The notes: a model not told the origin generated them from the letters alone. A stretch of 64,000 nt of DNA from an uncultured virus (IMG/VR IMGVR_UViG_3300013004_000029) (IMGVR_UViG_3300013004_000029); one strand, 5' to 3'. Positions 25,050 through 55,405 are shown, counted from the stretch's first letter. Numbers and translations: made by a program.

Positions 25050-28000
25050 TTATGCTATATTTTTTCCGGGAATGACTCCTGGTTTAGATGCTGTTCCTTC
25101 TCCTGATCCGTTCCTGTCGTAGTTTTTGAGTTGTTCTCCGGCTTGAGCAAGGATGGTGTTCTTTAATTGTTCTGGTAAATTGGCCATTACTTCTCCACCG
25201 TTTAATGTTACATTCACACCTAAGTTCTCACTAGTCAATCTAATTTCAGTTGGTATATTTACCGCAGCTAATTGGGTCAATAATGAATCAAGTTTACCTG
25301 CAAAAGCTTCTAATCCGCTAGTGTTCAATACACCAGCACCTTGATTTTGTTGGCCGCTAGAGGTGGGAACTGCTCTTGGAGCCGATACAGGTGCTCCAGA
25401 TGAGGCTGGAGGAGTATAGGCACCGCTACCTTGTCTTGGTTGTGGTATCTGAGGAGGTAGTGTTTCTCCTGTTCCTTGAGGAACTGATGGGGCAGATGGT
25501 GGTACTTGTCCTGCCATGCCTGCTGCTGCACCAGCCTGTACTCCTTGTGGCTGATATGTCACGCCAAGTTTTTTCTCCATTCGTGCCCTGGTTTCAGGAT
25601 TTAATCTACTTAAATATTGTTGCTGTCTTTCTGATCTAACTTCTTCAGCACTCATGCCTCTAATATATGCTTCTTTATGAACATTTTGTAGACCCATTGG
25701 TCCGGGTCTGCTTGGTTGTTGTTGTTGAGTAGGAGTTATTGCTTGTGTTGGTGGAGCATTATTAACATTAGCCATATTAGTCGCAGCTTCTCCGACCATA
25801 CCAGCTACTTGTTGTTCTGTTTGTAGATTAGCATAGGATTGAGCAGCGGCCTGGGAAGGGTCTGTGATCTGTGTATTGCCAAACATATCTACATTAGAAG
25901 ATCCATATACTGTTGGTCTTTGAACACCCGGTTTTGGAGCCGATGCGGCGATAGCTTGTCTTTGTTGTGCTGGTGTTTGAGCATTTCCTGTAGTAAAATC
26001 ATCTGGTTTGGATACTGCTCCAGGTACGCCGGAATATGCAACATTAGGATCGGAATTATCGACAGCCGTTCTTCTTGGTGGGGAAGATGCGGAACCATTC
26101 GTATTTGCTGCTGTTGTGGGCGTAGGTGTCGCTGCTTGATTTGCAGCAGCATTCTGTGTTGGAGTAGTGGGTGTAGACGGCTTAGAAGGTGGAACACCAT
26201 CAACCATTTCAATAAGAGACTGTTTTCTTTTTGCAAAGTCTTCTTCGGATTCTCCGGGTAAAGCGTGTTCTTCGTAGTTCATACCAGATGCAGAAGCCGT
26301 AAGATGTTTTTTACCCTTAGCATCTCCAGTTAGCACAGCATTCTCTTGTTCTTTTTCACGTATTGTTCTTTCTGCCTTTTGTTTGTCTTCATCAGTCACC
26401 GCACTAGCTCTGGCCTTTTTAGCTTCTTCAATCTCAGCTTTATTTTTGGCTACTCTTTCTTTAGTTTCTTCTGGTGTAAGTGCTGGTTTGCCTGGATCTC
26501 CGGGTTTATCTTTTCCTACTTCCCCTGGAGCTGTAATGCCAGCGATCTTAGCTTCTTCCATAGCTTTTTTAACTGCTTCTGCACCCTTTATCATAGCGTC
26601 TTCAATTACTACGCCTGTTTTAGCTATAATTTCTTCTTTCTCATTCATTAATACTGTGTTGGCTGTAGCAGCAGCTTCTTTGAGAGCAGCTTGTTGGCCA
26701 GCTAAAGCGTCTTGTAATGCTTTGACTTTTGGATCTTCTTTAGCTCCTTTTTTCATCATATCTATATAATCTTTCATACTCTTGTCACCAATTTTCATTT
26801 GTGACGTATCTATTCCTCTAGCAGCAAACATGCTTTCATATACGCTGCCCATCATCTTACTTTGAGCATCTGGATCTACCGCACCTAATAGTGGAGCTAA
26901 CTCTTTGGCCATACTAATAGTATCGCCACTTTCCTGTGCATATGCTTCTTGGGCTGCTCTTTGGGCTTGTTGATGACTACCACCTTGATTACGCACTTGA
27001 TTATATGCCTTATTAGCAGAATAAGATTCTTGGAAGCTGACTCCTTTACCACTTAATGTTCTATTTAGGTTATTGAAGGTATTGCCCATTTTCTTCAAGT
27101 CTTGTGGTGTGGATGTTAATACCTTCTCCATGAATCCACCAGCAGCACCAAGTTTAGCAGCTCTCTCTTGCATTACATCTTGTAGTTCTTGCATTATGCC
27201 ACTAATATTGTCTTTAATATCATTAGGCAAAGCCATAATTTCATCACGAGCTTGTTTTGTAGATTGAGCAAATTGTGCTGTTGCATTAGCCGCTGCTGCC
27301 ATAGCTCCAGTTGCACCCTTAACAGCATTAGGATCTCCACTCATTAATGCTGGTCTACTAGCTTCATTAACTTGTTGTTGATTCTCTGCTGCCTGATTTG
27401 TTGCTGTTTTTAATTGATTATATCTATTAAGCATAGCTTTTGGACTAGCCGCAACGTCTGGCGTAGTACCAAGTCTCATTGCTCTAGACTGTGTTCTAAC
27501 AGCAGCATCAGCTTGCCATGAGATTTTCTCTCCAGTTCCTCTTCTGAATGCTAGGGTACTATTTGCAATAGTAGAGAAAGTATCTGCATTATTGTTTCTA
27601 ACTTCTTGATCTTTAGATGCTCCTTTTTGAGCAGCATCGCTCATCATAGCTATAGCATTGGCTGCTGTCTGGGCTTGTGCTTTTAATGCTTCCATAACCT
27701 TTCCAGAAGCTGCTATCTTATCGGCTAATTCTGGTACAGCCTTAAGTAAATCATTGAAGTCTAATTGAGAGATGTCTCCTTCAAAACCATCAACAAACGT
27801 TGATATCTTTTCTTTCATGCTTGCAGAGATATCAGGACCAAAAGCTTGTTCAACAGTTTTATTCATAGCATCCTTGACACTAGATCTGGTTTCTGAATCG
27901 TCTTTACCAGATGCCGTGGCTTCTTTAACAGCACTTCCAAAACTTTGTTCTAATTTACGAGGCAGTACTGCTGACTGAACCATTGCTTCGCTACTAGATC

Positions 28001-31000
28001 CTGCCATACCAGCATTTTGACGAGCAGCTTGTTCAACCTCATTTATACTGTATGCATTTGGATTGGATAATATATCAGCAGATTTAGAAATTTGACCTTG
28101 TTGTAAAGCAGCTGACGGATTGTCTATAGCTTCTATACCAAGTTTTCCATTTTCCATTATTTTATCTGCTTTGGCAGCAGCACTATTTAGAGCATCGGCC
28201 ATTCTTTCAAATGAAGTGCTGACTTTTTGTGCTGCCTTAGAGGCTTTAGCGTTTTCTTTTGCTAATTTGGCTGCTTCACCAGCCGCTTTTAGATCCGCCC
28301 CTTGTCTTTCCATTGCTGCTTTTCTGGCGCTCTCTAATGTTTTAGCTTCTGCGTCAGTAACCTTACCATCTGCATAAACAGCTTCTAATAAAGATTGATA
28401 TCCTTTATCTGTAAGTGCTATAGATTCAGATAATTGATTAAATTCTGATCTTGGCATTGAAGATTCTAGTTCTTCAAGAGTTTTCCCTGTCTTTTGCATT
28501 TTAGCCATTAACATTTCTTTTGCTGCATCTGCTGCTGGCTGTGCTGACTCTACTCTTTCGTCTACAGTTTTGGCAGAAGATGGTCCTACGCCAGCGGACC
28601 ATTCGGCCCATGTTCTTTCTTTTTTCTTAGCTCCAGCAACAGCTTCTTCTCTACTAGCAGATGCTATCGTAGTAAAATTAGCTTGCGCTCTAGCTTCTGC
28701 TTCTTTTCTAGTTTTTTCAGGAGCTTGGGTATTTGCAGCAATCGATAAGTCTTGAGACATTTTACCTCTAGCTTTATCTATTGTCTCCATTCTTTTTTGA
28801 CTAGCTGCTTGTCTTTCTATCTCTGGCATTTGAGACTGACCATATAACGCACCACCAATTCCGCCTATAGCGGCACCAGCGGCCATACCGAGAGGTCCAA
28901 ATGCTGAACCCATCATCATACCCATTGAAGCGCCAGAAACTGCCGATCCTCCAATAGTAGATATTTGTCTACCTTCTTTTGATTTGTCTCCTCCTGCGGC
29001 TTTACTGAAGTATTCAACACCAGCACTACCCAACATGGATATGCCCATTTCGGCAGCATACATTCCCATGCCGCCCATACCACCACCGCCGCCTCCACGA
29101 CCCCCTTTACCAAAACCTCTTTTACGTTTACCGTCTGGACCTCTGGTGACACCATCATCACCCATTTGTCCACCACCTCCGCCCATACCAAAAAATCCTC
29201 CAACTCTCCCCATAATACCATTACCGGTGCTTCTCCATCCTTGTTTGCCTCCACCGATATCAACTTTTTTCATACCCATCAAACTACCAACAGCACTATC
29301 TGCACCTTTTGCTAATTTAATGATACTATTTACAGCACCTCCGACAGCTTGAGATAATGCTTTGGTTGGATTGCTTCTTAATGTAGCAGCAAAAGAACCA
29401 ACTCCACCGCTAGCTTTAGATAAGCCACCAGCTAATGAGGCGGCTCCACTATGTAGTCTGGCCATACCTCCAGCAACCTTAGATGCACCAGCAACAATTG
29501 GAGCAAAAGCTTTATTTGCTGTAGCCAATATAGCAGAACCGGATGTTCCTCCTGCGGCCATACTACTAGCTTTATTCTTGAATTTTGTTGCTGTTGTACT
29601 GTATTGTTCAGCTCTAGCATTATTTCTTTCTATATAGTTTTTCTTTTGTGGAGCTACAGTAATATCTCCACGCCCAGCATTTGCTAGTGCTTTATGAGGA
29701 TCTTGTCCAGTACTAACAGCACCAGCATAAATTGCTGCTCCTTGAGATTGTGATTTTCTATTTTGTTTAGCCTGTTCTAAAGCTTGTGATGCAGATCTTT
29801 GAGCTTCTTCTTTGCTAGCTCCTGCTTCTCTAGCTCTTCCGTATGCTTGTCCAGCTACTAGCTTTTCTTCTTTTTTGGACATTGGTTTAGCTAATGTTTT
29901 TGTTCTTTCTAAAACTTCGTTTCTAGCATAAGTTTTAGCTTCTGTGGCTGTCTTACCCGATTTTCTAGCTTCTTGATATTTATTTTTTTCAAAATCTTGT
30001 AAGTCTTGAACAGTTTTTGCTCTATTCGCTTCAAAATTGGCGGATGAGGTAATCTCTCTACTTTTGGGTGAAGCAGGACCATAGGGCGTTGGGCCAACTC
30101 TTTCCTTTTTCTCTTGTTTAGCGGTCACCAAACCATTGTCAGATTTCCACTTTTCTATTTTTTGTTGTTTAGAAGCAAATTTTACCGCTGTTTCTTCTTT
30201 TGCAATTTTAGAGGCTTCTGTTGCAGAGGCTCCGGATTTTACGGCGGCTTTTTTCGCATTTTTTTCAAATTCAGCTTTATCTTTATCATTCTTTTTAATT
30301 GTATCTGTACTAGAAGTTATATGTTTAAGTGGCTTTAGGTCAATTTCAGAACCACCTTTTTCTATTGTTCTTGCTAGTTTTTTCATTGCTGCTTGCACAT
30401 CATTTATCGGCCACTTTTCTACACCTTTTTCTAATTTTTCAAAAGCAGCAGAATTAGCTTGTATACTTGCTCTTAGTTTAGCAGCATCTCTTGGAGACAT
30501 ACCAGATAAAGCTTGGTCTATTACGCCACCAGCAGCTAATTTTTGTACAGAGCCTCCGCTGTGGTATTTCGGTAATTTTGCTAAAGTTTGAGCAGCAACT
30601 TTGCCTCCCCTATTTAATTTTCTAAGAGTATGATGTCCAATTTGACCAGCAGCGTGTTTGTTAATAACAAATTCACCCTCTTGAGCCATAATCGGAATTT
30701 CTCCTCCGATAGCGAAACTACGAGATTCATTTAATTGAGACCCATATTGCTCAAGCAGTCTTCTTTTCTGGGTTTCTGCTCGTGTTTTTCTTTCTTCTGC
30801 TTCCCATATTTGTTGTTGATAGGGGTTTTTAACACTCTGACCAGTTAATTTTCCAAAAAATCCTGGTTTTATATCATGGCTTCTAAAAGTTTGTATACCA
30901 GATTCGGCATCTTGAATTTCTTTATCTAGTCTTTTTATAGTGTCTTTTAGTTCTAGTTTTTGCTGCCTATTAAGAACAACAGTAATACTTCCTGGTTTAG

Positions 31001-34000
31001 GACTTACTTTTGATTGAATAGCAGCTTGTTTAGTTTGTATTGGTGTTGATGGTCTTGTTGCTGTGACCAATGCTGGTTTAGAAGTCGAAGTTATCGGTTT
31101 TGCGGATGGTGGGGTTGATTGTTGAGATAATCTATATTTTCTTTGAGATAATCTGTCTATCTCATCTTCTAATTTATGTATTTCTGTTTGATATGGATTT
31201 TGTTTACTTCCAAAAAAACTAGTTTTTGTATGACTTGCTAAAACCTGTCTTCTAGCATTTAGATCATCAATCTGAGATTGTATAGCTAAAAGCTCACCAC
31301 CAGATGATTGTGTCCTAGATGTTTGCGCGACAACAGGTTTTCTTCTTATTGGCCTTAATGAACCACCAGCAAATCTTTGGATGGGTCCGCCATTTGCCTT
31401 TAAGAACTCAAACTGCATATGTTTAAGAAAAGGAGTATATTTTTCATCATTCATATCAACAATATCTGAGCCTTTGATAATATTAGGCTGTTGTTGATAT
31501 CCATAATTAAGTGAACTATTTGGATCTTTATCTATTGTATGGTGTTTAGCATCTAATGGTATCTTTGTGACTTGAGAGCCATATTTATTATTGGGTTGCG
31601 ATCTTTCATTGGCATAAGTATCCCAAACCTTTTTAGCGTGTTGACTTACTTTTCCTCTGTGTGAGGTTAATACTCCACCTCTAGCTGTTACAGCTTCCAT
31701 TACGGCATCATAAAGTCTTGGGCCATATCCTTTAGTAGCCTTGCTCAATCCAATATTCCAAATTCCCTTTTCTATTTCTTTAGCTGTTACAAAACCTTCT
31801 CTTACATTATTCTTGAAATAGAATGCTGTTATTTCATGACCAGATGATCTTAATCCTATTTTACCAAATTGTTTTTGTGGCTTGGGAGGCATACCTCCTT
31901 GAGCAAGACCGTATCGCTCCGGGTATCTTCTGGCTAATCTAGCTAAAACTAGGTGGGGTCTGGATCCTGCTTTACTTTTTAGTGATGTTTTTTTAGCTCT
32001 TAGAGATTCTATAGCTTCAACAATACCTGGTTGTTCTGTTCTAATTTTCTCTGTAATCCTGGATGGATATGCAGTTAAAGCCTTCTCTATTTCAGATACT
32101 TGTTTATTTGTTCTAGATTGTGTTTTATCAATAATTCTTGGTAAAATTTGTTGTCTATTGGCAAGCTGACCGGCTCTAGATTTTAAATCTTTTTCTACTT
32201 CTGGATGAAACCCACTAAAATCTCCTCTTAATATTCTTTCTCTAGCTGCTGTTCCACTTTCTCCATTGGGATCTCGGGGTACTTCTCTTACTCCAAAACC
32301 AGCTTCTTGATATTTCTTTAAAGATTTTTCATCTTTACCAGCAACTAATGCTTCACTACCTTTGGCTCTACGAATAAATAATCTTCTGCCAGTTTCTGGA
32401 TCTTTGCCCACATCAAAAACGTGAGGAATAGCAAAACCAGATGTTTTTTTACTGACATAAGCATCAGGAAATGCTTTTTGAGCTAATTTATGTCTAAACT
32501 CTTGAGGAAGCAATGCTGTACGAGCAGAATGGATATCTGTGCCAACAGGTTCATTAGGACCAACCAAAACTAATTTTTTATGTTTAGCATTAGACATCAA
32601 TCCTTGATCATGACCAGCTTTTGTAGGAGGAGAAAAACTACCAAATCCAAGACTGATCTGCTCCTCTTTTACTATAGGTAGTTCATTTTGTCTTTTGATT
32701 CTTTTCTTGAAATTGGGCAGCAGACCTAGGGTTACTAGCTTGCTTTTATCTCTAAGACCCATCTGTAACATTGCTTCAGTTTCACCACTATCTTGAGCTG
32801 TTATAGTATGAGTTCTTCCGTATTGCTTTTCTCCAGTTGCTGTTCTATGTCTTAATTGTTTCTTTAAGATTTTCTGTTCTTCTTTTGTACTACTAGATAA
32901 TGCTATAACTCTATCAGAATGATTTAAGTCAACCAATCTATCTGGAGATACCGAAGCTGCTGTATCTATTATACTATTTGCTTTAGATACATCCCCTAAT
33001 GTTTCGATAGGAAATCTATTTGTTTTACGTAAAGTAGCATTATCTGATATTTGTGTTCTCTGATTTCCTTCCGCAAAAGAACTTTTACCACTACCGGGCG
33101 AACCCACTACTGTGGTTAGTCTGGATAGTCCGCCAGATTTTCTAGCTTTGATAGCTTCTTCAGTAAGAATTCTCTTATATTCATCGAGATTAACTCCAAG
33201 TCTTTCCATTTCTGCTTTAGCTTTTGGACTATTTCTTAAAAAGTCACTATCTATCCAACCAACATTACGAACAGCTGGTTGTTTTGATTTTATGCCACCA
33301 CCTTTAGCAAAAAATTGATCTGGCTGAAAAGGTATCTCTCCTCCTCCATATCTCTTAAGTTGTTGAGCAAGCTCTAGTTGTCTTGGGGTGGGACCTGTGG
33401 TAGTTCTTAAAGAATCTGTCAAAGATGTAACATTTGTTTTGAGAGATAATTTACGACTTCTTTCCTCTGTTCTTTTTTGAATATAAGCTTTAGCTTCCTG
33501 AAGATTGTATTGATTCGTTTTTAAGAAATCTAGAACTTGATTGTGTTCCCATTTTGGTAAACCACTTCTATTTAATAGGTCGAAAAATTCTTGACCAAGC
33601 CTATTGGATTTTGTACTTCCGAATGGACTTGCTCCAACACCCTTTTCGTTAGGCACTAATTTATATGTAGATCTAGATAATTTACCACCATTAGCAAATT
33701 TTTGGATTATACCACCCATAGCTCTATTTTGAGAAGCTCTTAGAGAAGCTAATCCTCTACCTATCTGACTAGATGTTCTTTGTCCTTTAGAATTTCTACT
33801 TTTGCCTACTGCTTTTCTTTTTGCTGCTTCTGCTAGAGTTCTTCCTCCTTCTCCTCCATATGTGATGTCTGTTGGCACACCAGCAGCCTGTGGAATACCG
33901 AAGACTTTAGCTAGTTCTGGAGATAGGCCAGAAGCACCAAGATCTATAGAACCTAATGGTTTATCGATACCCATTAATCCTAAGATAGCTTGTTCTAACA

Positions 34001-37000
34001 AGCCTCCAGCAATACCAGAATGAATAGGTTTTCTTTTTAATTTACTAACATTATCTTTTGGTAATATCATACCAGCTTCTTGTGCTATGATTTTCATAAC
34101 CTTTTGGGTTATTCTAGCAGTTTGATTTCTTATTACGGCAGTAACTCTAGCGGCTGTTTTACCCTCTAATGCTCCTATATGTAAAGTAGCTGGAGTGTCT
34201 TTGATTCTTCTTCCTGTTTTTCTGTCTCTTGCTCCAGGAATCATTACTTCTGTGCTACTTCCTCTAATACCAGCAGGTGCCATAGCACCAATAACTGCTA
34301 CGTTTGTTCTTTTTGCTCTAACAGAAGTTTCAGCCTGAGAAGTTTTTCTTAAGGTTCTGGCTTCTTCTAATTGAGCTATTAATTTAGATCTAGCTTGAGA
34401 GCCGATATCTCCTCTGTTTCCTAAATCTGACCAAGAAGCAATGCTACCAAAATTAATGCCAAGTTTTTTAGATTCTGCTATTAATTCAGACCTACCCATA
34501 TTTTGTAGTGGTTTATCAGAACCCCCACTAAGTCTTTGTATCAAACCGCCTATAGCATGATATCTTCGACCCTTACCACCTCTTTGATATACTACTCTTA
34601 AATCTCCTGTCTCTGCTCTTTTTCTCATACTATCTGTATATCTTTTTCTAACTTCGGATGTTGTTCTTTTTACTTTTTCTCCTTTTTCTGCCGCCTGTTT
34701 AACAGCTTCGGCTCTTCTTTTTCTTCCCTTTTCCGTATCTGTATATACAATCTCTCTAATCTCAGAGAATCCTTTTTTAAGCACGGCTGGGGCTGCGTCT
34801 ATCATTGCTTTTCCAAGAGGAAATAGGTCTTTATCTCCACGAATAGGATATCGTAATTTACTTGCAGATGCTAATAATGCATCTTTTAAATTAGATAAAA
34901 CTTTAGGATCAGATAATAAATTATATGCCTCGCTGGATGTACCCCCTCTAAAAGTACCGGCTCCTGGCCTTACCTTTTTGCCATTCCTAGAAATTTGAAG
35001 TTGTTGAGAAAATAGTTCTTCAGGACTTGTGCCTTGTATTAGCGATAAGAATTGTTCTTTAGAAATATTTGCATTATTTTTCTTTAGTAATTGATTCCAT
35101 ACAGGTCCTTCTTTACCCAGTGTTATACCTATATTGGTTAAACCTCTTGCGTTTCTACTTCCCCTACCAAATAAATCTTTAATAATCGGGCCGGGATCTA
35201 GATGCATGAAAACACTACCGCTAGCATTTGTTTTACCAACTTTAACAGGCTTGTCTGTTCCACTGGATAGTCTTTGAATTTTTCCTCCCAAAGCATATCT
35301 TATAGCTCCTCCATTAGAAGCCATCTGTGCTATATTCTCTGCTCCGATTGCTCTGACAGATTTTCTTTTGATAACAAAAGATCCTTCTGGTAGCGTTGTT
35401 CTGAAATTATCTCCTCTGCCAGAACCGGGAACCATAAATATTCCACCACCGCCAGCCCTATTCAAAGCAACAGATGAGTTGGGTCTATCTCCAGCACGAT
35501 TTAATCTTCTTAGATTACCATATCCTGCTTTTTTTGCTGATTCTCCAACAAATACCATTTCTCCTGCTTCTAGAGCGACAGGAACCTGACCTCCTTGAGC
35601 ATAACCCCTAGGCGCTCCACTCATTCTTGTACCTGGACCACCACCTGGTCCTCCACCACCTCTTCTCATTCCACTAGCGAAACCAGAAGCAAATCTAAAA
35701 GCTCCGATAGTGCCTTTAACAGCTAATAATCCTGCTATTGCTGGCATTGCATGTTTGGAAGCATCGGCTACTGATATAAGCGCACTAGCTAAATCTAAAG
35801 CAACCTTGACCATGGTCTGAAATTGATTTGAACTACCTATACTTCTAACAAGAGCAATAAATTCTTGTTGTACTTTAGCCATTTGTATTGCTAAAGCCTG
35901 TTGAGCTTTTGCGGCATCAGCTGTTAGAGAACCTTGTCCTCTTTGAGCAGTCATTAGTGCTCTTTCAGCTGTTGAGAATTGTTGTAATAATGGAATAACT
36001 TTACCTACCTGTCTAAAGCCTCCAAGCTCTTCGATGATAGATGAAAATCTAATATCTCTAGTATCTAAGCCAGCCAAACCACGACTTAATCTTTTAACAG
36101 CCTCATACGGACCAACGAATTTACCTTCAAGATCTGTTAACTCTATACCGTATTGTTTTAATAGGTCGATAGTATCTTTTCTTTGAATTCTAGTAAATAT
36201 TGTTCTTAAGCCTGTGGCAATAGTTTCTGCACTTTCACGGGTTGTTGCTCTAACACTAGTGAATAATGCTATGAATTGATTCAATGCTTCAGAATTTTCT
36301 ACCACACCTTTACTGGCTGCGGCGAACACACCACCAGTACGCTGGATAGCAACGATAATATCGTCGGCTTCAACGGCAAATTTAGCGGCAACCGAGTTTA
36401 TTGAACCAAGAGCAGCCTCTAATTGTGCTGTAGATATAGAAAACTGTCGCATTAAAGCAATACTACCTTCTACTGTCTCATTAAGATTACCGAAAGATGG
36501 AGCGAGAACACTTTTTGCTAATGCTTTTAATGCTTCTTCTGTCTCGTTAGCCGATAAACCAGCCTGAGCAAGCGTACTAGAAACGTCTATTAAAGAACTA
36601 GAAGAAACACCAAGACTAGTAGACAACGCAGTAATTGTTTGTTCTAGTCCTTCTAGTCCTTTTAAGGATGTGCCAGTAACTTGAGATAGTTGTACTAACT
36701 GACTATTGAATTTGATAAACTCACTAGATGCTTGTCCTAAAGCATTAGTAAATTTGAAAATAACACCAGTAACTAGTGAGAATGCAGCAAATCTACGAAT
36801 GGCTAATGCTGACTGTTTTCCGAACTCAACCATAGAATTAGAAGAATCTGTTATACTAGCAGTAGTTTTAGCTTGTTGAGATTGTAGTCTTTGAGACTGT
36901 TGTGTAACAGCAGCAATATCTTTTGGTACAGATCTGACGTCTACCGACCTTATAGCTGTTCCAAGTTGACGAAAAGCAGATGAAGCAGAAGATGCTGATG

Positions 37001-37202
37001 AATTGATCTGCTTTAGTGTGGAATCTAGTGCTTTTAGCGAACTATTGAGTCCAGAAGCAGCCGAGGCTACAGTTGGACTAATTTGAATATTAACATTTCC
37101 ATTAACTGTACCAAGTTGTTTGCGTAAATTAGATATAACTGGCTTGAGATTATTTGGTCCAGTAATATTTAATTGTGCTGTGAGATTAAAAGCTGCCATC
37201 AA
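25050..37202 (-). CDS. Giant tape measure protein (4050 aa) with embedded cargo domains (polyvalent TMP)
   Basis: N-terminal TP901-type TMP core (FNSQLVQLSQVTG...IATGLRTIFTRI); two GE[FM]V..GL..LN motifs; internal P-loop, HIGH-type NTase and GNAT motifs; Gly-zipper hydrophobic segments; lies after the tail tube and chaperones. Confidence 0.9.
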   Translation of the reverse strand: MMAAFNLTAQLNITGPNNLKPVISNLRKQLGTVNGNVNIQISPTVASAASGLNSSLKALDSTLKQINSSASSASSAFRQLGTAIRSVDVRSVPKDIAAVTQQSQRLQSQQAKTTASITDSSNSMVEFGKQSALAIRRFAAFSLVTGVIFKFTNALGQASSEFIKFNSQLVQLSQVTGTSLKGLEGLEQTITALSTSLGVSSSSLIDVSSTLAQAGLSANETEEALKALAKSVLAPSFGNLNETVEGSIALMRQFSISTAQLEAALGSINSVAAKFAVEADDIIVAIQRTGGVFAAASKGVVENSEALNQFIALFTSVRATTRESAETIATGLRTIFTRIQRKDTIDLLKQYGIELTDLEGKFVGPYEAVKRLSRGLAGLDTRDIRFSSIIEELGGFRQVGKVIPLLQQFSTAERALMTAQRGQGSLTADAAKAQQALAIQMAKVQQEFIALVRSIGSSNQFQTMVKVALDLASALISVADASKHAMPAIAGLLAVKGTIGAFRFASGFASGMRRGGGGPGGGPGTRMSGAPRGYAQGGQVPVALEAGEMVFVGESAKKAGYGNLRRLNRAGDRPNSSVALNRAGGGGIFMVPGSGRGDNFRTTLPEGSFVIKRKSVRAIGAENIAQMASNGGAIRYALGGKIQRLSSGTDKPVKVGKTNASGSVFMHLDPGPIIKDLFGRGSRNARGLTNIGITLGKEGPVWNQLLKKNNANISKEQFLSLIQGTSPEELFSQQLQISRNGKKVRPGAGTFRGGTSSEAYNLLSDPKVLSNLKDALLASASKLRYPIRGDKDLFPLGKAMIDAAPAVLKKGFSEIREIVYTDTEKGRKRRAEAVKQAAEKGEKVKRTTSEVRKRYTDSMRKRAETGDLRVVYQRGGKGRRYHAIGGLIQRLSGGSDKPLQNMGRSELIAESKKLGINFGSIASWSDLGNRGDIGSQARSKLIAQLEEARTLRKTSQAETSVRAKRTNVAVIGAMAPAGIRGSSTEVMIPGARDRKTGRRIKDTPATLHIGALEGKTAARVTAVIRNQTARITQKVMKIIAQEAGMILPKDNVSKLKRKPIHSGIAGGLLEQAILGLMGIDKPLGSIDLGASGLSPELAKVFGIPQAAGVPTDITYGGEGGRTLAEAAKRKAVGKSRNSKGQRTSSQIGRGLASLRASQNRAMGGIIQKFANGGKLSRSTYKLVPNEKGVGASPFGSTKSNRLGQEFFDLLNRSGLPKWEHNQVLDFLKTNQYNLQEAKAYIQKRTEERSRKLSLKTNVTSLTDSLRTTTGPTPRQLELAQQLKRYGGGEIPFQPDQFFAKGGGIKSKQPAVRNVGWIDSDFLRNSPKAKAEMERLGVNLDEYKRILTEEAIKARKSGGLSRLTTVVGSPGSGKSSFAEGNQRTQISDNATLRKTNRFPIETLGDVSKANSIIDTAASVSPDRLVDLNHSDRVIALSSSTKEEQKILKKQLRHRTATGEKQYGRTHTITAQDSGETEAMLQMGLRDKSKLVTLGLLPNFKKRIKRQNELPIVKEEQISLGFGSFSPPTKAGHDQGLMSNAKHKKLVLVGPNEPVGTDIHSARTALLPQEFRHKLAQKAFPDAYVSKKTSGFAIPHVFDVGKDPETGRRLFIRRAKGSEALVAGKDEKSLKKYQEAGFGVREVPRDPNGESGTAARERILRGDFSGFHPEVEKDLKSRAGQLANRQQILPRIIDKTQSRTNKQVSEIEKALTAYPSRITEKIRTEQPGIVEAIESLRAKKTSLKSKAGSRPHLVLARLARRYPERYGLAQGGMPPKPQKQFGKIGLRSSGHEITAFYFKNNVREGFVTAKEIEKGIWNIGLSKATKGYGPRLYDAVMEAVTARGGVLTSHRGKVSQHAKKVWDTYANERSQPNNKYGSQVTKIPLDAKHHTIDKDPNSSLNYGYQQQPNIIKGSDIVDMNDEKYTPFLKHMQFEFLKANGGPIQRFAGGSLRPIRRKPVVAQTSRTQSSGGELLAIQSQIDDLNARRQVLASHTKTSFFGSKQNPYQTEIHKLEDEIDRLSQRKYRLSQQSTPPSAKPITSTSKPALVTATRPSTPIQTKQAAIQSKVSPKPGSITVVLNRQQKLELKDTIKRLDKEIQDAESGIQTFRSHDIKPGFFGKLTGQSVKNPYQQQIWEAEERKTRAETQKRRLLEQYGSQLNESRSFAIGGEIPIMAQEGEFVINKHAAGQIGHHTLRKLNRGGKVAAQTLAKLPKYHSGGSVQKLAAGGVIDQALSGMSPRDAAKLRASIQANSAAFEKLEKGVEKWPINDVQAAMKKLARTIEKGGSEIDLKPLKHITSSTDTIKKNDKDKAEFEKNAKKAAVKSGASATEASKIAKEETAVKFASKQQKIEKWKSDNGLVTAKQEKKERVGPTPYGPASPKSREITSSANFEANRAKTVQDLQDFEKNKYQEARKSGKTATEAKTYARNEVLERTKTLAKPMSKKEEKLVAGQAYGRAREAGASKEEAQRSASQALEQAKQNRKSQSQGAAIYAGAVSTGQDPHKALANAGRGDITVAPQKKNYIERNNARAEQYSTTATKFKNKASSMAAGGTSGSAILATANKAFAPIVAGASKVAGGMARLHSGAASLAGGLSKASGGVGSFAATLRSNPTKALSQAVGGAVNSIIKLAKGADSAVGSLMGMKKVDIGGGKQGWRSTGNGIMGRVGGFFGMGGGGGQMGDDGVTRGPDGKRKRGFGKGGRGGGGGGMGGMGMYAAEMGISMLGSAGVEYFSKAAGGDKSKEGRQISTIGGSAVSGASMGMMMGSAFGPLGMAAGAAIGGIGGALYGQSQMPEIERQAASQKRMETIDKARGKMSQDLSIAANTQAPEKTRKEAEARAQANFTTIASASREEAVAGAKKKERTWAEWSAGVGPSSAKTVDERVESAQPAADAAKEMLMAKMQKTGKTLEELESSMPRSEFNQLSESIALTDKGYQSLLEAVYADGKVTDAEAKTLESARKAAMERQGADLKAAGEAAKLAKENAKASKAAQKVSTSFERMADALNSAAAKADKIMENGKLGIEAIDNPSAALQQGQISKSADILSNPNAYSINEVEQAARQNAGMAGSSSEAMVQSAVLPRKLEQSFGSAVKEATASGKDDSETRSSVKDAMNKTVEQAFGPDISASMKEKISTFVDGFEGDISQLDFNDLLKAVPELADKIAASGKVMEALKAQAQTAANAIAMMSDAAQKGASKDQEVRNNNADTFSTIANSTLAFRRGTGEKISWQADAAVRTQSRAMRLGTTPDVAASPKAMLNRYNQLKTATNQAAENQQQVNEASRPALMSGDPNAVKGATGAMAAAANATAQFAQSTKQARDEIMALPNDIKDNISGIMQELQDVMQERAAKLGAAGGFMEKVLTSTPQDLKKMGNTFNNLNRTLSGKGVSFQESYSANKAYNQVRNQGGSHQQAQRAAQEAYAQESGDTISMAKELAPLLGAVDPDAQSKMMGSVYESMFAARGIDTSQMKIGDKSMKDYIDMMKKGAKEDPKVKALQDALAGQQAALKEAAATANTVLMNEKEEIIAKTGVVIEDAMIKGAEAVKKAMEEAKIAGITAPGEVGKDKPGDPGKPALTPEETKERVAKNKAEIEEAKKARASAVTDEDKQKAERTIREKEQENAVLTGDAKGKKHLTASASGMNYEEHALPGESEEDFAKRKQSLIEMVDGVPPSKPSTPTTPTQNAAANQAATPTPTTAANTNGSASSPPRRTAVDNSDPNVAYSGVPGAVSKPDDFTTGNAQTPAQQRQAIAASAPKPGVQRPTVYGSSNVDMFGNTQITDPSQAAAQSYANLQTEQQVAGMVGEAATNMANVNNAPPTQAITPTQQQQPSRPGPMGLQNVHKEAYIRGMSAEEVRSERQQQYLSRLNPETRARMEKKLGVTYQPQGVQAGAAAGMAGQVPPSAPSVPQGTGETLPPQIPQPRQGSGAYTPPASSGAPVSAPRAVPTSSGQQNQGAGVLNTSGLEAFAGKLDSLLTQLAAVNIPTEIRLTSENLGVNVTLNGGEVMANLPEQLKNTILAQAGEQLKNYDRNGSGEGTASKPGVIPGKNIA

Positions 37203-43153: not shown

Positions 43154-44071
43154 CTATGATACACCGATATATAACCCATTGGTCTGTTTATCATATCTTT
43201 TGAAGTAGTTGTCATATTGCTTCATATATGTCCAATTGATAACTATAGATTCGTCATCATTAATAACAGGATATAAGTAACCAAAAATAAAAGCTTTTTT
43301 AGATTTAGTATAACAATAATTATTGTAACATTTATATAAACTAAATGTTGACTGAGTTAATTTATTATAGATAGTAATATATGGCTTTTGTTGAATATGT
43401 CCTATCTGTAGATTTTCATTAGAAACTATCTGTCCAAATATTCTTTCTAGTGAATGACAATAAGTGGCATTGTATGAATCAGAAACTTTTCCAGTCTCTA
43501 ATAATGGGTATATAGCATCTATAAAATTTTTCGTAAAATACTTTTTAAATAATTCAGTTCTAGACATAAACATACTACCAGCCATAAAACGTTTTTTGGT
43601 GGTAGATATATTTAGTAATTTTGCCAATATATCAATATATAATTTATTTTTACCAATATTTGTCATTATGAGAGTAGGATCTGTAATAGCTCCAATATTC
43701 TTATTGTTATGTAATAAAGATGTATTTTTTTCTAGTATCTCTTTAGAACCTATTAAACTATTAAATAGTATATATTTCCAGTCAAATTTAGCTATTATAG
43801 ATTTTTTGCTATGAATTTTTATAAAATACGGATATTTATCTTCGTCCAAATCCTGTATTTGAAGAAGGAATGGTCCTATGTCTCCTCCTCTATTTTCTAC
43901 ATAACGTATATTAATAATATTTAATTGCTTTAAATCATTAATTATTTTTGAATTATCATTATCTGAGCATAATGCTATATCAATATGAATATCATCTTTT
44001 ATAGATAACAATAGGGGAAATATATCTTCCCATATGTCTGTATAAAAAATATAGATTAATACTGCGACCAT
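43154..44071 (-). CDS. Rhamnan synthesis F (RgpF)-like putative glycosyltransferase
   Basis: Motifs IYIFYTDIW, VENRGGDIGPFL, FIKIHSKKS, FMAGSMF, CHSLERIFG are typical of the RgpF family. Confidence 0.8.
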   Translation of the reverse strand: MVAVLIYIFYTDIWEDIFPLLLSIKDDIHIDIALCSDNDNSKIINDLKQLNIINIRYVENRGGDIGPFLLQIQDLDEDKYPYFIKIHSKKSIIAKFDWKYILFNSLIGSKEILEKNTSLLHNNKNIGAITDPTLIMTNIGKNKLYIDILAKLLNISTTKKRFMAGSMFMSRTELFKKYFTKNFIDAIYPLLETGKVSDSYNATYCHSLERIFGQIVSNENLQIGHIQQKPYITIYNKLTQSTFSLYKCYNNYCYTKSKKAFIFGYLYPVINDDESIVINWTYMKQYDNYFKRYDKQTNGLYIGVS

Positions 44072-49407: not shown

Positions 49408-51600
49408 TTATTCTGTATATAGGTATGAATAAAATGAAGCTTTAGCCTGTTTTTGTTCTTCTACCGTTAATGTTTTGTCTAATTGTGCAGATAATCCTTT
49501 GAGCCAATTATTATACCCCAGAAATAATGTTTTCTGCTCTTCTTTGTTTATCTCGCCAAATACTTTCATGATATTATCTTTATCTATTGTTGAAAATGGT
49601 TTGGTGGCAAATAGTATTTTTGACTTGGTTTCCTCTAATTCCTTAGACTCTTCGCTAGATAATGATCTTAGGTTTTTCTTCTTATAGAAATCTAATAATA
49701 TAGGATTTATTATTTCACTTATTTTTTCTTGTGCATCATTCGCCCAAACCATAAGGGTTGCCCCTGTTTGGGGTTTAAAGACTTTTGTTTTGCGTGGCGA
49801 AGAATCTTTAGAAGTCTTGGGGCGACCTTGACCCGGTACTCCTGGCAAAGATTCTGGCGAATCTTTTGCCAACTGCGTTGGGTTAGCATTAGGCATTTGA
49901 GAGGTCTTCATTTCTAACGCTGTTTTCTCTCCACTTTTCTTTTTGTCCAACTCCAACCCCACTTGACTGGGTGTTACGGTTCCTCCTTGGAGAGCTATTT
50001 TCTTTAGAGCATTTTCTAGTTGTGGATCATGCCATGGGCCAGATTTTCTTACCATTCTATTACTATTCCTATCTCTTGTTTCCCTATTAAGTCTGGTTCT
50101 TTCCATATCTGGATCAAAGCCAAATCTATTTTGTAGCATTTCGTCTGAGATTAGATTTCTATCTGCTAATTGAATTAATAATGCCTTTTCACTATCTTCA
50201 TTACTTAGATCCATTCTATCAAATTCTATTTTAGCTGAGTATTTAAAACCCATTGCTTTTTGAACAAGGGCCATTTCTTGTTCCCAGAAATTGATTATAA
50301 CATCTCTTCCGTATTGGAGTCTTTGAGTAAGAGTTTTTAGACTGATGAAATTGTTTGTGGTTCCAGCCGCACCGAATGTTCCTGTTAGGGTTGGAGGAAT
50401 ACCAAGACCAGCATAAACACTGTTTAAATGTGGAATGTATTTACCTTCTCCAAGAAATTGATGTACTGTAGTTTTGGATTCTATTAACTCAATATCTGGA
50501 CCCCACACAAGATCCATTGTACCACCACCAACATTGTTACCTAAAATTTGTGCTAATTTAGCGGTGGCTGCTTTTGTTGGGGCGATCTTATGTTCTAGAT
50601 TTCCTAGTTTAAAAATTCTGATATTAGAGATAGCACCGTCTAGTGCTGCCATATCTGCTAATTTAAGCTTTTCTATAACAATGATATCATCCATAATGGC
50701 ATAAATCATTGGGAAAGCCCATGCTTGCCAATCGTCTTTTTTGTAGTGATATACAATAGTTTTATTTGGATCTAATAAATAGGGTTTTCTATTTTTAGCT
50801 GCTTCTATAATTTCTGTTGGTAAAGATTCAACAATTTTCTTTTCTGCTTCAGTTTTGGGACTATTAATAATTTTTCTAAGATTACCCGGTAAACTAATCT
50901 GATATGTTTTATTGGCTACGAAAGAAGCTAGTGCTCCACCAGAAACATCAACATAATAAGGATCTATGAAAGTATATTTCCAGGGAACTTCTCTTTTTTC
51001 TAATTTGATTTGATCTGGGTCTTGTACGATAAGATCTGGACTAGAAACAGCTTTATACAAATTATCTGCAACTTTAACGCTTAATTTTGCTGTTTGTCTA
51101 TTAACAACAATATTTCCTGTTTTATATAAGTTATTAAGAAATCTTTCGCTACGTTCTTTACCATTGATTTTTTTAAACCATTGCTTATAGAATCTTTCTA
51201 TTCTTTTGTTTTTGTGAACTGGTCGGATTCCTTGAACCGCAAAATCCGCCATAAGATCAATAACATTTTTTACCAAACCAACTCTTTGATAGATATCTTC
51301 AGCTTTTTTAATTACATTTTTTACTTGAGAAGGAACTTCTTCGTCTGGTCTAAAATAGTAGTAGTCGGCTCTTGTTAATCCGGGTCTGCCACCAGTATTT
51401 GTGTCTAGATTAGAATAGTCTAAGCGATATCTTCTTGAACCTTCAGCCTTTTGTATACCTATAAATTCTTCAAGAGAATCTGAGGATTTATTAAGAGCTT
51501 CCTGTTTGCTGTTAAGGTCATCTCCCCATGTTACATATGCTTCAGCTTTTTCTGTACTAGCATTTTGAACACTTTCGCTTTTTGGATATTTTTTGCTCAT
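49408..51600 (-). CDS. Portal protein
   Basis: 730 aa directly after TerL; LVKNVIDLMADF, AGLGIPPTL, IEFDRMDL, GRP tail motif. Confidence 0.75.
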   Translation of the reverse strand: MSKKYPKSESVQNASTEKAEAYVTWGDDLNSKQEALNKSSDSLEEFIGIQKAEGSRRYRLDYSNLDTNTGGRPGLTRADYYYFRPDEEVPSQVKNVIKKAEDIYQRVGLVKNVIDLMADFAVQGIRPVHKNKRIERFYKQWFKKINGKERSERFLNNLYKTGNIVVNRQTAKLSVKVADNLYKAVSSPDLIVQDPDQIKLEKREVPWKYTFIDPYYVDVSGGALASFVANKTYQISLPGNLRKIINSPKTEAEKKIVESLPTEIIEAAKNRKPYLLDPNKTIVYHYKKDDWQAWAFPMIYAIMDDIIVIEKLKLADMAALDGAISNIRIFKLGNLEHKIAPTKAATAKLAQILGNNVGGGTMDLVWGPDIELIESKTTVHQFLGEGKYIPHLNSVYAGLGIPPTLTGTFGAAGTTNNFISLKTLTQRLQYGRDVIINFWEQEMALVQKAMGFKYSAKIEFDRMDLSNEDSEKALLIQLADRNLISDEMLQNRFGFDPDMERTRLNRETRDRNSNRMVRKSGPWHDPQLENALKKIALQGGTVTPSQVGLELDKKKSGEKTALEMKTSQMPNANPTQLAKDSPESLPGVPGQGRPKTSKDSSPRKTKVFKPQTGATLMVWANDAQEKISEIINPILLDFYKKKNLRSLSSEESKELEETKSKILFATKPFSTIDKDNIMKVFGEINKEEQKTLFLGYNNWLKGLSAQLDKTLTVEEQKQAKASFYSYLYTE

Positions 51601-51651: not shown

Positions 51652-53691
51652 CTATTCTCTATATATTCCTTTATATATGTCTTCGTTTACTGCGGATGTA
51701 AACCATTCTGGTCCTTTATATAGTGTTCCTTGACAATTGACTATATTCCTACGATTTTCACCTATGATATCATATTCGACTGGCTGTAAAGTTAATCGGC
51801 TTTGTCTTGCTAACATATTTGCTATTAATAATGAACTATATCGGTCTTTTCTTAATCTACCCTTTTTACCGTTTGGTAGCTTAACTTCTGGAGTATCCCA
51901 TCTATCTCTTGAATTAGGACCTGTGCTTGTTTGTGACATAACTATTGTTGTCAATTCATTTTTAAGTTCTTCTATTTCAAGAATGCATTCACTTACGCTA
52001 TCATAAATATTATGTGTTAAATCTGTTGTCATAATATCTTTACCTTCAGCATCTAATGCTAGTCCGAGAGTTAAACCATCGAACCTAGGAAATAATAGTG
52101 TTTTATCTTCTAGGTCTTTTCTTAATCCATGATTTGCTTGACTAGTCCATTCTGCCTTAGCAAACTGTACGAGTTCTATGATATGTTGTCCCGGTTGATT
52201 ATCTGTGTCTTTGGATTTATTGTAATCAATAACTGGCCATAATAGTGTTTCACCATCTTCTAGCTTGGACGGATCATGCAATGCTTCTTCGATGGCTACA
52301 CCACCACCCTGAGCATCCATACCAATACGTGAACATGGAAATGTTTTCATAAGATTTCTAATTTTTCTTGCACAAAACCCATAGAAATCATGTTCTTTAA
52401 CTAATCCTGTCTTTTGTCTTTCTTTAAAGTTATTTCTATTAGTTGTCCAACAATATACAACTCTTGAGTGATCTTGATATGCTTCTAGTATAACTATACT
52501 GAAATTATCTTGTTCACTAGCAGGATCGATTCCATAGATATATTGTTTAGATGAATTACCTGTAATCACAGCATCAAATATGATAGGATTAGAATTTATT
52601 ACTACGGGATTAGAGTCATTGACTACGCAGCTCTCAATTAAACTACGCTTAAAAAATCCATTACTATCAGACGTAAAACAAGCACCATATTCCATATTAT
52701 ATATGCCAGTATGAATAGTGGCTTTTGCTCTACTTACCTGTTTATCATCCATGAAGCCTTTTGGAATAAGCTCATATGGGATTCTAATAATGCTATAATC
52801 TTTCCAATTAAAATTAATAGGAACTTCACCTTTGAAGATTTCTTCTAATTTATGAGGATCTCCTTTGCTCTCTATAATTGCTTTATATCTATTCCAATAT
52901 TGTGCGAAATGTTTAAAGGAATAATCTGCTGTACCACTAATGATAGCTTGATTACCCATTTTTGTATTTAATGATTCTAGCTGTTCATTCCATAGCCCAG
53001 CTTCTATCATAGCTTCTCTTTTGGCTTGTTCTTTAACATTTTGTATAGGACTGGCCGAAACTGCTGCGAAGCCTGAAACAACTGTCTCATAAATATCTGG
53101 AGATATAGATGCAAATTCGTCAGCAATAATAATATGAGCGCGTAAACCTCTAATTTTACTTCCGTCGCCCATCGGCACAGCAATAGTCCAACTGTCTCCT
53201 AGTCGTATTGTACATCTATCAACGTCTCGACGAGGACCGTCATCATTACCGTTGTAGATGCTTCTAAGAATAGGACTATTTCTCCACATGGTTTCCATGT
53301 ACTCAAAGATAATCTTACTCTGTCTGAAAGCTGCACCAACGATAACTATTTTAGTTCCTGGATAAAATGTACAACGCAATAGAGAATATAAGGCTAGTAA
53401 AAATGATTTACCCCAACCACGACTAGCAATATACATTGGAAAAGCTCTAACCCAAAATTCTTGTAAAATTAATATTTGTATTGGATGTAGTTCTATATTA
53501 AATAAAAGCTTACATGTTGATCCAATATAGTCAGGACTCCTAAGTAATCTAAGCAGATGCAGGTCCGGATTTTCTATATCCTTTTCTGATCTGTGTATCA
53601 TTGGATTACGATCTATAGATAGGACAGATAAATCACCTAGTCCTAGCCAAGCATCTTCAAATATCTTTTTCTGACTTTCCTTCAAGTTCAT
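51652..53691 (-). CDS. terL: Terminase large subunit
   Basis: Walker A ASRGWGKS, IRGLRAHIIIADEF (Walker B), nuclease GIDPAS and DRYSS. Confidence 0.9.
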   Translation of the reverse strand: MNLKESQKKIFEDAWLGLGDLSVLSIDRNPMIHRSEKDIENPDLHLLRLLRSPDYIGSTCKLLFNIELHPIQILILQEFWVRAFPMYIASRGWGKSFLLALYSLLRCTFYPGTKIVIVGAAFRQSKIIFEYMETMWRNSPILRSIYNGNDDGPRRDVDRCTIRLGDSWTIAVPMGDGSKIRGLRAHIIIADEFASISPDIYETVVSGFAAVSASPIQNVKEQAKREAMIEAGLWNEQLESLNTKMGNQAIISGTADYSFKHFAQYWNRYKAIIESKGDPHKLEEIFKGEVPINFNWKDYSIIRIPYELIPKGFMDDKQVSRAKATIHTGIYNMEYGACFTSDSNGFFKRSLIESCVVNDSNPVVINSNPIIFDAVITGNSSKQYIYGIDPASEQDNFSIVILEAYQDHSRVVYCWTTNRNNFKERQKTGLVKEHDFYGFCARKIRNLMKTFPCSRIGMDAQGGGVAIEEALHDPSKLEDGETLLWPVIDYNKSKDTDNQPGQHIIELVQFAKAEWTSQANHGLRKDLEDKTLLFPRFDGLTLGLALDAEGKDIMTTDLTHNIYDSVSECILEIEELKNELTTIVMSQTSTGPNSRDRWDTPEVKLPNGKKGRLRKDRYSSLLIANMLARQSRLTLQPVEYDIIGENRRNIVNCQGTLYKGPEWFTSAVNEDIYKGIYRE

Positions 53692-55404: not shown

Positions 55405-55405
55405 A

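Follow-up and report, generated by a model that had tools for sequence, protein, structure and literature searches.

The 64,000-nucleotide stretch of DNA analyzed here, called the window below, comes from an uncultured virus (IMG/VR IMGVR_UViG_3300013004_000029) and encodes a tape measure protein (TMP) of 4050 residues. What is the middle of this protein for? Residues ~530-2230 had been described as cut into blocks by recurrences of a double-glycine motif, and the original prediction was that the tail works as a syringe that delivers these blocks into the host as a swappable payload, with the motif acting as a linker, a recombination hotspot or a protease release site. We find that homologous TMPs gain, lose and reorder the blocks, that their homology breaks off at the motif, and that the motif appears to derive from an element whose profile also matches the lambda protein gpH. 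The structural models support the view that the middle of the TMP is made up of separate modules in a row, of which two or more are globular and enzyme-like. On balance, and by analogy with known systems, we lean towards the array being an effector carrier whose modules would be delivered into the host by the tail.

Profile matches make the product of the gene a TP901-type tape measure protein: PF10145 (PhageMin_Tail) covers residues 188-382 (3.2e-23; 83.1 bits with a Pfam cut-off of 33.2), and the protein is also matched by three PHROG TMP families (4211, 28 and 167). The listed start is a TTG at 37202, and an ATG follows directly after it (37199-37202). Since P0002, an identical protein in the database, is 4049 aa long, translation more probably begins at the ATG. 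The N-terminal core is kept in all 72 relatives compared, at 52-85% identity. At the other end, the C-terminal part contains a Gly/Met-rich hydrophobic stretch (residues ~2540-2800) and a Pro/Gln-rich tail, and its segment C3 (residues 2801-3560) is present in 44 of the 72.

These relatives came from a word-indexed protein search, which returned 29 TMPs of 2623-6201 aa, and from a scan of IMG/VR, which returned 206, the analysis being carried out on 80 loci of the 206. TMP frames in the family range from 1958 to more than 7385 aa. Motifs were counted in the 81 TMPs that were left once near-duplicates had been removed, module presence in 72 relatives longer than 1900 aa, and the junction element described below in 73 long TMPs. 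The smallest members (L021, 1958 aa) consist only of the core, two junction elements and the tape. A tblastn comparison of the middle region with 50,697 GenBank phage records gave no match.

Table 1. Features of the tape measure protein gene, in the order of the protein. Nucleotide positions are those of the window; HMM, hidden Markov model.
Feature	Residues	Nucleotides	Strand	Remarks
Tape measure protein gene		25050..37202	(-)	4050 codons + stop, single uninterrupted frame
N-terminal core	1-531	35610..37202	(-)	PF10145 + hydrophobic, Gly-rich end
Two junction elements	531-571 + 583-649	35256..35612	(-)	junction HMM 22.7, 27.2 bits
RGYAQGG	532-538	35589-35609	(-)	short motif
RYALGGKIQRLSSG	635-648	35259-35300	(-)	inside second junction element
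Block B2	649-879	34566..35258	(-)	basic, pI 10.3
RYHAIGGLIQRLSGG	880-894	34521-34565	(-)	full junction motif
Block B3	895-1159	33726..34520	(-)	basic, pI 10.9; alignment A4
RAMGGIIQKFANGG	1160-1173	33684-33725	(-)	full junction motif
Block B4	1174-1296	33315..33683	(-)	in 10/72 relatives, at positions 1148-2883
FFAKGGG	1297-1303	33294-33314	(-)	short junction motif
Block B5	1304-1763	31914..33293	(-)	predicted P-loop domain, HIGH nucleotidyltransferase, C-terminal helical bundle
YGLAQGG	1764-1770	31893-31913	(-)	short motif
Block B6	1771-1934	31401..31892	(-)	putative GNAT-like domain, invariant ATKGYGPRLYD
KANGGPIQRFAGG	1935-1947	31362-31400	(-)	full junction motif, predicted disordered
Block B7	1948-2161	30720..31361	(-)	coiled-coil-like, Pro/Ser/Thr-rich spacer
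Complete junction element	2156-2232	30507..30737	(-)	junction HMM 67.0 bits
SFAIGG	2162-2167	30702-30719	(-)	part of complete junction element
KYHSGGSVQKLAAGG	2212-2226	30525-30569	(-)	part of complete junction element
C-terminal part	2233-4050	25053..30506	(-)	Ala-rich, helical-looking tape (translation, composition)

All nine motif strings reported earlier were recovered, each of them occurring once and within ~25 nt of where it had been placed (Table 1). Five are copies of a ten-residue motif, GGx[IV]Q[KR][FL][AS]xG, which usually follows [KR][YF][AHN]x, and the other four of the nine are the short core alone, [FY]Ax(x)GG. In effect, the long motif is the short one doubled, [YF]AxGG - x[IV]Q[KR] - [FL]AxGG. 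The "YGL" of YGLAQGG is the conserved end of block B5 (PExYGL in relatives). Six-frame translation of the window contains five copies of the full motif, and every one of them belongs to the TMP reading frame. For the short form, written as [FY][AH]x(1-2)GG, seven copies were observed with 0.41 expected from 2000 shuffles, and the 81 non-redundant relatives hold 111 full motifs, as compared with a mean of 0.06 and a maximum of 1 in 50 shuffles.

Judged by its sequence, the inter-module motif is not a bare linker and is instead a detached piece of an old, widespread TMP junction element of ~80 aa, the consensus of which is FAxGGxVxxDTVPAxLTPGEFVINKKAAxxIGxxxLHxLNxADxxxGxNxGGxVGxxQxFAxGG. This element is present in all 73 long TMPs, in 2-10 copies per protein (mode 5), and three copies are found here (Table 1). 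The complete one has the order SFAIGG - GEFVINK...LRKLN - KYHSGGSVQKLAAGG, and the pair within residues 531-649 has the order [FY]AxGG ... GE[FM]V ... L..LN ... GGKIQRLSSG. Both GE[FM]V...L..LN copies that had been said to bracket the array are there, at residues 547 and 2176, and the copy at residues 583-649 is a third, weaker one.

The junction profile (alignment A6) extends beyond this family. It finds two copies in gp16 of mycobacteriophage Douge (2.4e-8), matches residues 732-793 of lambda gpH (8.4e-7), and gives a weak match to residues 1017-1088 of JBD30 gp46 (0.068). The junction region is not resolved in the Douge, lambda and JBD30 virion structures, where only the last 25-42 TMP residues are seen. 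Three copies of the element modeled as a complex from A6 gave no answer (score 0.00), and the element's own fold is uncertain. Lambda gpH is converted to gpH* by the loss of ~14 kDa from its glycine-rich C-terminal region; the published account names neither the protease nor the exact site. The cut can be estimated to fall 20-40 aa upstream of the junction match in gpH. In lambda, the junction element would thereby lie in or beside the zone of gpH processing, which lends a cut circumstantial support and is no evidence of one. T5 pb2 is reported to be cut after R1127, which separates its enzymatic domain, and the fragment stays in the tail. For the JBD30 TMP, a cut at residue 1066 has been proposed.

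Comparison of the homologous TMPs supports the prediction that the blocks are swappable: modules are gained, lost and reordered at the motif. In BLAST alignments of this TMP with the 80 others, 139 of the 285 interior ends of high-scoring segment pairs (HSPs) within residues 500-2300 lie no more than 10 aa from a motif (49%; 10% expected) and 193 lie no more than 20 aa from one (68% vs 20% expected); these figures describe a pattern and carry no probability, since related sequences do not give independent HSPs and an HSP can be lengthened by the motif itself. The junction block is present in 51 of the 72 relatives; B5 was found in 32, B6 in 12, B3 and B4 in 10 apiece, B2 in five and B7 in three. 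Their arrangement varies as well, with B5 standing ahead of B3 in P0008 and L080 and B4 behind B5 in P0017. The 432 inter-junction segments of the long TMPs fall into 184 clusters, 132 of which are singletons.

Placed on a tree of the N-terminal core (FastTree), the 13 occurrences of B6 require 11 state changes (12.2 with shuffled labels) and the 33 occurrences of B5 require 17 (24.4 with shuffled labels). Of the 33 TMPs with B5, 23 have a motif no more than 40 aa upstream of it. For B6, one lies within this distance upstream in 9 of 12 cases and downstream in 7 of 12; the figure for random windows is 10%. Across further viral loci, B6 was inside a giant open reading frame (ORF) in 30 of 30 cases and, as judged by eye, between such motifs.

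What are the modules? On the strength of its model, B5 can be assigned confidently, at the superfamily level only, as a P-loop domain followed by a HIGH nucleotidyltransferase resembling NMNAT and PPAT. Its landmarks are a Walker A motif at G1367-K1373 (GSPGSGKS, which conforms to GxxxxGK[ST]), PPTKAGH ending at H1531, and ESGTAAR (S1649-R1654). The HIGH superfamily is marked by (H/T)xGH, which follows the first strand, and by a motif of the ISxTxxR type near the C-terminus; B5 has counterparts of both. Alignment A2 contains 14 locus-derived homologues with 28-37% identity and one more with 87%, and the residues invariant in the 15 sequences include G69 and K70 of Walker A, the HIGH-type G218, P222 and H228, and S346, T348 and R351. 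The AlphaFold2 model calculated from this alignment is an alpha/beta structure with a predicted local distance difference test score (pLDDT) of 87.6 and a predicted template modeling score (pTM) of 0.80.

Searched against PDB sequences with HMMER, the B5 profile matched MJ0951 (1.2e-5) and, weakly, NMNAT, NadR and PPAT chains; both B5 motif regions are aligned to the MJ0951, NMNAT and PPAT chains. The VIA-align superposition of B5 residues 210-380 onto M. jannaschii NMNAT (1f9a) has a Z-score of 12.9 and a root-mean-square deviation of 2.8 Å over 147 aa, and further matches are NadM 2qjo (Z 13.2), PPAT 4nah (Z 12.4) and TmcAL (Z 9.3). Residues 9-284 match the zeta-toxin P-loop kinase 6epg in a single VIA-align row (Z 8.3). 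Foldseek returned NMNAT and PPAT at probability 1.0, and the BFVD matches are viral cytidylyltransferase-like proteins, the polynucleotide-kinase and zeta-toxin rows being weak. No curated Pfam or NCBIfam model matched B5 above its cut-off, and PF16581 appears below cut-off in relatives only. We considered both a NadR-like pair, in which a kinase and an NMNAT would rebuild NAD+, and an RNA enzyme similar to TmcAL or to polynucleotide kinase; the fold cannot separate the two.

An exhaustive search of 1.84 billion representatives with the B5 profile produced 220 matches, 90 of them at E <= 1e-30. Among the matches listed at this level, nine proteins are shorter than 1000 aa, and in seven of the nine the match starts in the first 9 residues or ends in the last 5, which is the pattern of contig-end fragments; P0102 and P0109 do not show it. 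Free nucleotidyltransferases of 180-200 aa appear beyond ~1e-7.

The data on B6 are consistent with a GNAT-like domain, the match being middling. Its AlphaFold2 model, calculated with 18 homologues and with both flanks included, has a core pLDDT of 70-94. Model residues 1-22 and 184-206, which hold YGLAQGG and KANGGPIQRFAGG, have a pLDDT below 50 and no secondary structure; both flanking motifs are left disordered, which agrees with the linker role that had been suggested for the motif. The Foldseek matches are mostly GNAT proteins, with Gcn5, AAC(6') and similar at probability 0.9-1.0, and all 50 VIA-align matches listed read, by title and judgement, as acyl-CoA N-acyltransferase (GNAT) folds with Z-scores of 6.1-7.6. 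The GNAT-core stretch is invariant across 19 sequences (alignments A3 and A5). Motif A of GNAT enzymes, which binds acetyl-CoA, reads Q/R-x-x-G-x-G/A. In B6, the invariant A68, G71, Y72, G73 and P74 are located at the expected strand-helix junction, and their spacing is not that of canonical motif A. A search of the Atlas found one neighboring cluster with PF00583 on 13% of its members. Neither Pfam and NCBIfam (PF00583 or related) nor PDB sequence profiles matched B6. No near-length homologues were found for B6 with its flanks or for B3, and at that sensitivity the search revealed no free-standing versions.

The remaining blocks gave less. B2 had no match in Pfam, PHROG, NCBIfam or PDB, B3 had no usable match among PDB sequence profiles or in the ESM Atlas, B4 had none in the family libraries Pfam and NCBIfam, and B7 matched coiled-coil families of Pfam and PHROGs only weakly. 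B7 has an internal repeat at residues ~1985-2015 and ~2105-2140, in which FFG..(K)NPYQ..I...E is followed by a charged helix, with a Pro/Ser/Thr-rich stretch between the two copies. The view that residues ~530-2230 are not tape-like is supported only for B5 and B6 (624 aa with predicted compact folds), the two blocks that were modeled. Three domains, namely the P-loop, the HIGH nucleotidyltransferase and the GNAT-like one, bear out through their folds and motifs the description of some blocks as recognizable enzymes; none of the three reaches a Pfam or NCBIfam cut-off. The blocks were also rightly called basic: every one of them has a pI of 9.6-10.9, and the net charge of the middle region is +129.

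Relatives carry further modules in the same setting. The ADP-ribosyltransferase (ART) exoenzyme family PF03496 matches relative P0025 with 32.7 bits and is found in five of 48 viral-locus TMP middle regions, four of them above the 23.4-bit cut-off and one at 23.3. By eye, these modules keep the STS and ExE motifs; they start just after ...[FY]AxGG and finish in ...VQQ[FL]AxGG. The junction motif stands on both sides of four of the five viral-locus ART modules, and L059 has a weaker LASGG downstream. HExxH occurs in 25 of the 73 long relatives, as compared with 1 after shuffling, and mostly in a conserved module, LYHE[LM]THQLF...GDND, with an invariant Y-H-E-x-T-H. This module, which is possibly a zincin-like peptidase by its motif, is not recognized by Pfam and has no PDB sequence-profile match (alignment A7). 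It lies at residues ~2490-2790 of the L070 TMP (L070:17444-18346) and was also seen in L019, L031, L048, L069, L074, L020 and L045. The L025 TMP contains, at residues ~2097-2290 (of L025:11501-19366), EF-hand-like calcium-binding loops just below Pfam cut-offs.

There is no cysteine among the 4050 residues of the TMP, as against 198 in the 15,840 residues of the other 33 ORFs of the window (1.25%). At this frequency, the chance of finding none is ~1e-22 for the whole TMP and 5e-10 for the middle region alone. The family behaves in the same way, with 17 cysteines in the 333,457 residues of 81 TMPs and none at all in 64 of the 73 long TMPs. Enzyme modules without cysteine suit a chain that is kept outside the cytoplasm and travels in an unfolded state, and fit poorly with enzymes working solely in the producer cytoplasm. 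As regards proteases, Peptidase_C48 and Peptidase_C39 were absent from the three complete relatives and from G001, other peptidase families not having been searched. The sole recognizable protease in the window is an S8 subtilase at 60858-62528 (+), with 170 bits.

These properties can be assembled into a mechanism. A polymorphic array of independently folding modules would lie between the conserved N-terminal core and the C-terminal tape, with the motif as a flexible Gly-Gly hinge marking the end of one module and the start of the next. TMPs are trimers or hexamers, and the TMP density in the JBD30 tail tube is ~20 Å wide. Because folded copies of the 51-kDa B5 cannot fit a density of this width, the Cys-free, strongly basic chain inside the tail tube would have to remain unfolded or metastable, as has been proposed also for T5 pb2, for the RNA polymerase-TMP of P23-45 and for the Sle1 effector. 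Like other TMPs, the chain would leave the tail before the DNA, and its modules would refold in the host, which supplies ATP, acetyl-CoA and NAD+; modules that need these compounds would act only after they had reached the cytoplasm and refolded. There, they may work as early takeover or counter-defense enzymes. The Gly-Gly junctions would let each module fold alone, and they may be cut; that the hinges are indeed also cut to free the enzymes is possible, though we doubt it. A bolder version, which seems to us unlikely, is that a conserved processing of TMPs, the same reaction as gpH to gpH*, takes place at the [FY]AxGG junctions as its substrate, and that the tail injects separate enzymes. 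If this were true, the injected cocktail would consist of ADP-ribosyltransferases, a GNAT, and a kinase with an NMNAT-like enzyme, the latter restoring NAD+ or another nucleotide cofactor destroyed by abortive-infection defenses, and the payload would be re-assorted between phages module by module.

Several observations weigh against the delivery of modules by the tail. The search for C48 and C39 peptidases found no GG-specific protease, and this TMP is without HExxH. The motif is no strict two-sided delimiter, because it is near the downstream side of B5 (within 40 aa) in only 4 of 33 TMPs. None of the eight separate blocks scored above a curated cut-off in Pfam, PHROGs or NCBIfam; B2, B3, B4 and B7 (833 aa) have no family or free-standing homologue in the libraries searched, which leaves half of the array unassigned, and the GNAT Z-scores of B6 are middling (up to 7.6). 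The full two-domain B5 is found almost solely in proteins of 1000-7279 aa. By this distribution in the sequence databases, B5 is not a free-living enzyme taken up as cargo, and because its full form is nearly confined to giant, TMP-sized proteins, it could serve the TMP itself and not be cargo. Unfolded storage in the tube is assumed. Furthermore, whereas the analysis shows the anatomy of the protein, the predicted folds of two blocks, the conserved catalytic motifs, the shuffling at the motif and the homology of the junction to known TMPs, we infer that residues 530-2230 are present in the virion, are ejected, refold and are active in the host, and the same applies to cleavage.

Could the array serve the tail itself? 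The modules and junctions might contribute to spacing, assembly checkpoints, binding of a chaperone or of the tube, or an envelope channel, their folds being non-catalytic remnants. Such a role would account for the recurrence of the junction element (2-10 copies in every one of the 73 long TMPs, in relatives also within the tape part) and for its occurrence in ordinary TMPs, as well as for a B5 that is near-confined to TMPs and for four blocks without an enzyme signature. However, the G-K of Walker A, the HIGH histidine and S.T..R are invariant across B5 copies with 28-37% identity, the GNAT core motif is invariant in 19 sequences, the ART modules keep STS and ExE, and the module content is nearly independent of the core tree, unlike a structural requirement. 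We consider this explanation quite unlikely. The absence of cysteine bears on another possibility, namely that the TMP is a polyprotein precursor cut at [FY]AxGG during tail assembly or in the producer cell, its modules being freed or lost and acting late without injection, while the tail keeps no more than the N-terminal core and the C-terminal tape. Cys-free enzyme modules are hard to explain for cytoplasm-only enzymes when other phage proteins contain 1.25% cysteine, and fusion to a virion protein is an odd route for the expression of late cytoplasmic enzymes. Lambda gpH and T5 pb2 are reported to be cut in tail morphogenesis, but the T5 fragment is described as staying in the tail. The junction profile does match the C-terminal glycine-rich part of gpH, modules have the motif at their C-terminal end, which resembles the layout of polyproteins, and 25 of 73 relatives carry the HExxH module as a candidate peptidase. 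Set against this, no protease was identified in the search for C48 and C39, and HExxH is missing from this TMP. A polyprotein precursor is, in our estimate, decidedly improbable.

The two remaining explanations concern length and DNA. If all 4050 residues simply measured a very long tail of ~600 nm, the motif array would be a set of ruler repeats. Long TMPs of this sort exist, as P23-45 and P74-26 are reported to have a TMP of 5002 aa and tails of 0.8-1 μm, and lengths within the present family range widely, from 1958 to more than 7385 aa. Yet the models of B5 and B6, which are of good confidence, show compact alpha/beta domains and not helices, and the P23-45 TMP is itself described as holding a folded RNA polymerase, which makes a plain ruler very improbable. 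The motif might also be kept as a DNA-level hotspot at which cassettes are swapped by homologous recombination, one of the roles originally suggested for it. Homology break points coincide with the motif, and the conserved boundary motifs of polymorphic toxin loci have been ascribed such a role. The DNA speaks otherwise: the five copies are 47-62% identical, share no more than 8 exact bases, and use the same codon at identical residues in 32 of 68 cases. Because DNA identity is low and codons are shared in only 32 of 68 cases, the conservation is at the peptide level. We rejected the DNA-level hotspot, which is scarcely credible.

TMPs are usually seen as rulers and channel formers, and the present family, with 206 relatives in IMG/VR, would be one in which the TMP is a carrier of shuffled conflict-type enzymes. 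If effector delivery is true, phages would have in the tail lumen, in addition to the head, a second compartment from which proteins are injected. The family also offers a way into the old question of how lambda gpH is processed, since the [FY]AxGG - GEFV - [FY]AxGG element is a candidate determinant that is open to mutation in lambda itself. Unexplored enzymes may be sought among the modules, where more than 130 segment types are singletons and Pfam recognizes almost nothing, and the near-total absence of cysteine may serve as a simple mark by which further proteins passing through tails could be found.

The TMP gene is part of a late operon that is entirely on the minus strand, with the large terminase (51652-53691) and the portal (49408-51600) upstream of it and fiber-like ORFs downstream. 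Two giant ORFs, at 1-6699 (-) (>2233 aa) and 6711-12017 (-) (1768 aa), contain RCC1 repeats and Laminin_G_3 / DUF642-like domains and are probably tail fibers. Glycan and sugar-nucleotide genes are located in and beside the structural module (43154-44071, 54391-55419, 57392-59218 and 59222-60142); their types are RgpF-like, GDP-mannose 4,6-dehydratase, GlmS-like amidotransferase and NAD-dependent epimerase. A small protein with sigma-70 region 2 is encoded at 56205-56840 (-). The closest relative is a viral contig of 232,683 bp with ~70% identity, and three related records rated complete have 233-244 kb. We take the source to be an aquatic jumbo phage, uncultured, whose tail is long and probably non-contractile. 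In bacterial genome collections, TMP relatives were found on only nine contigs (L112-L120), all from bins of metagenome-assembled genomes labeled Alphaproteobacteria, Chitinophagia, Verrucomicrobiales, Flavobacteriales, Rickettsiales and Thermoplasmatales. Because the bins carry unrelated phyla, these are probably mis-binned phage contigs and no guide to the host.

How does this protein compare with known systems? Open-access full text and bioRxiv yielded neither a phage TMP with a chain of several cytoplasm-type enzymes nor a junction motif between such modules or its link to the gpH processing region. Polymorphic toxins have conserved pre-toxin boundary motifs, VENN in CdiA and DPxGL in Rhs, and a short conserved peptide marks the border of variable-module exchange, with one boundary per protein and a C-terminal toxin. 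Here, in contrast, there are many boundaries, and they are inside a virion protein. Embedded enzymes or processing are known in the TMPs of T5 (pb2), mycobacteriophage TM4 and lambda (gpH). The known embedded enzymes act on periplasmic peptidoglycan, whereas the modules of this TMP would need ATP, acetyl-CoA or NAD+. A single junction and a single cut are found in known TMPs, whereas the motif is repeated here at each module boundary.

Effectors of contractile injection systems (Sle1, Tme) resemble the array in having a TMP-like carrier and exchangeable functional domains, and for Sle1-type effectors an adapted conformation in the tube lumen, with folding after ejection, has been proposed (PMC13277306). 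They differ in being single C-terminal domains on bacterial nanomachines, with no array and no GG junction motif (PMC13277306). The polyvalent proteins of phages and conjugative elements likewise combine many conflict-type domains (ART, GNAT, kinases, nucleotidyltransferases) in one huge polypeptide; they are predicted to be delivered with the DNA, are polymorphic in domain content, and have a zincin-like peptidase as a hub (PMC5512222). They are defined by 2-15 distinct catalytic domains, and we find a P-loop domain, a HIGH nucleotidyltransferase and a GNAT-like domain here, with ART in relatives; the zincin HExxH hub, which is present in ~36% of polyvalent members and not obligatory, is absent from this TMP. 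Their carriers are MuF, portal and head-associated proteins, the words "tape measure" having no occurrence in the text of that paper (PMC5512222). Their nucleotidyltransferases are of the Pol-beta type and their kinases of the Ser/Thr/Tyr type, as opposed to HIGH and P-loop here, and a text search of the paper found no conserved inter-domain GG motif (PMC5512222).

Finally, gp96 of P23-45 and P74-26, a TMP of 5002 aa, was described in 2022 as carrying a virion RNA polymerase, called unsuspected, and is reported to hold a metallopeptidase and transmembrane domains as well (10.1101/2022.12.01.518664). The likeness lies in a giant TMP with a folded enzyme that acts in the cytoplasm and that, as its authors propose, enters with the TMP at infection (10.1101/2022.12.01.518664). 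No RNA polymerase was seen in the TMP analyzed here. P23-45 has one N-terminal enzyme, whereas this TMP has seven or more modules of other types, linked in a chain in its interior, with the junction motif between them and with shuffling among relatives. By analogy, P23-45 would be the closest precedent for the delivery of modules by the tail, which is itself plausible.

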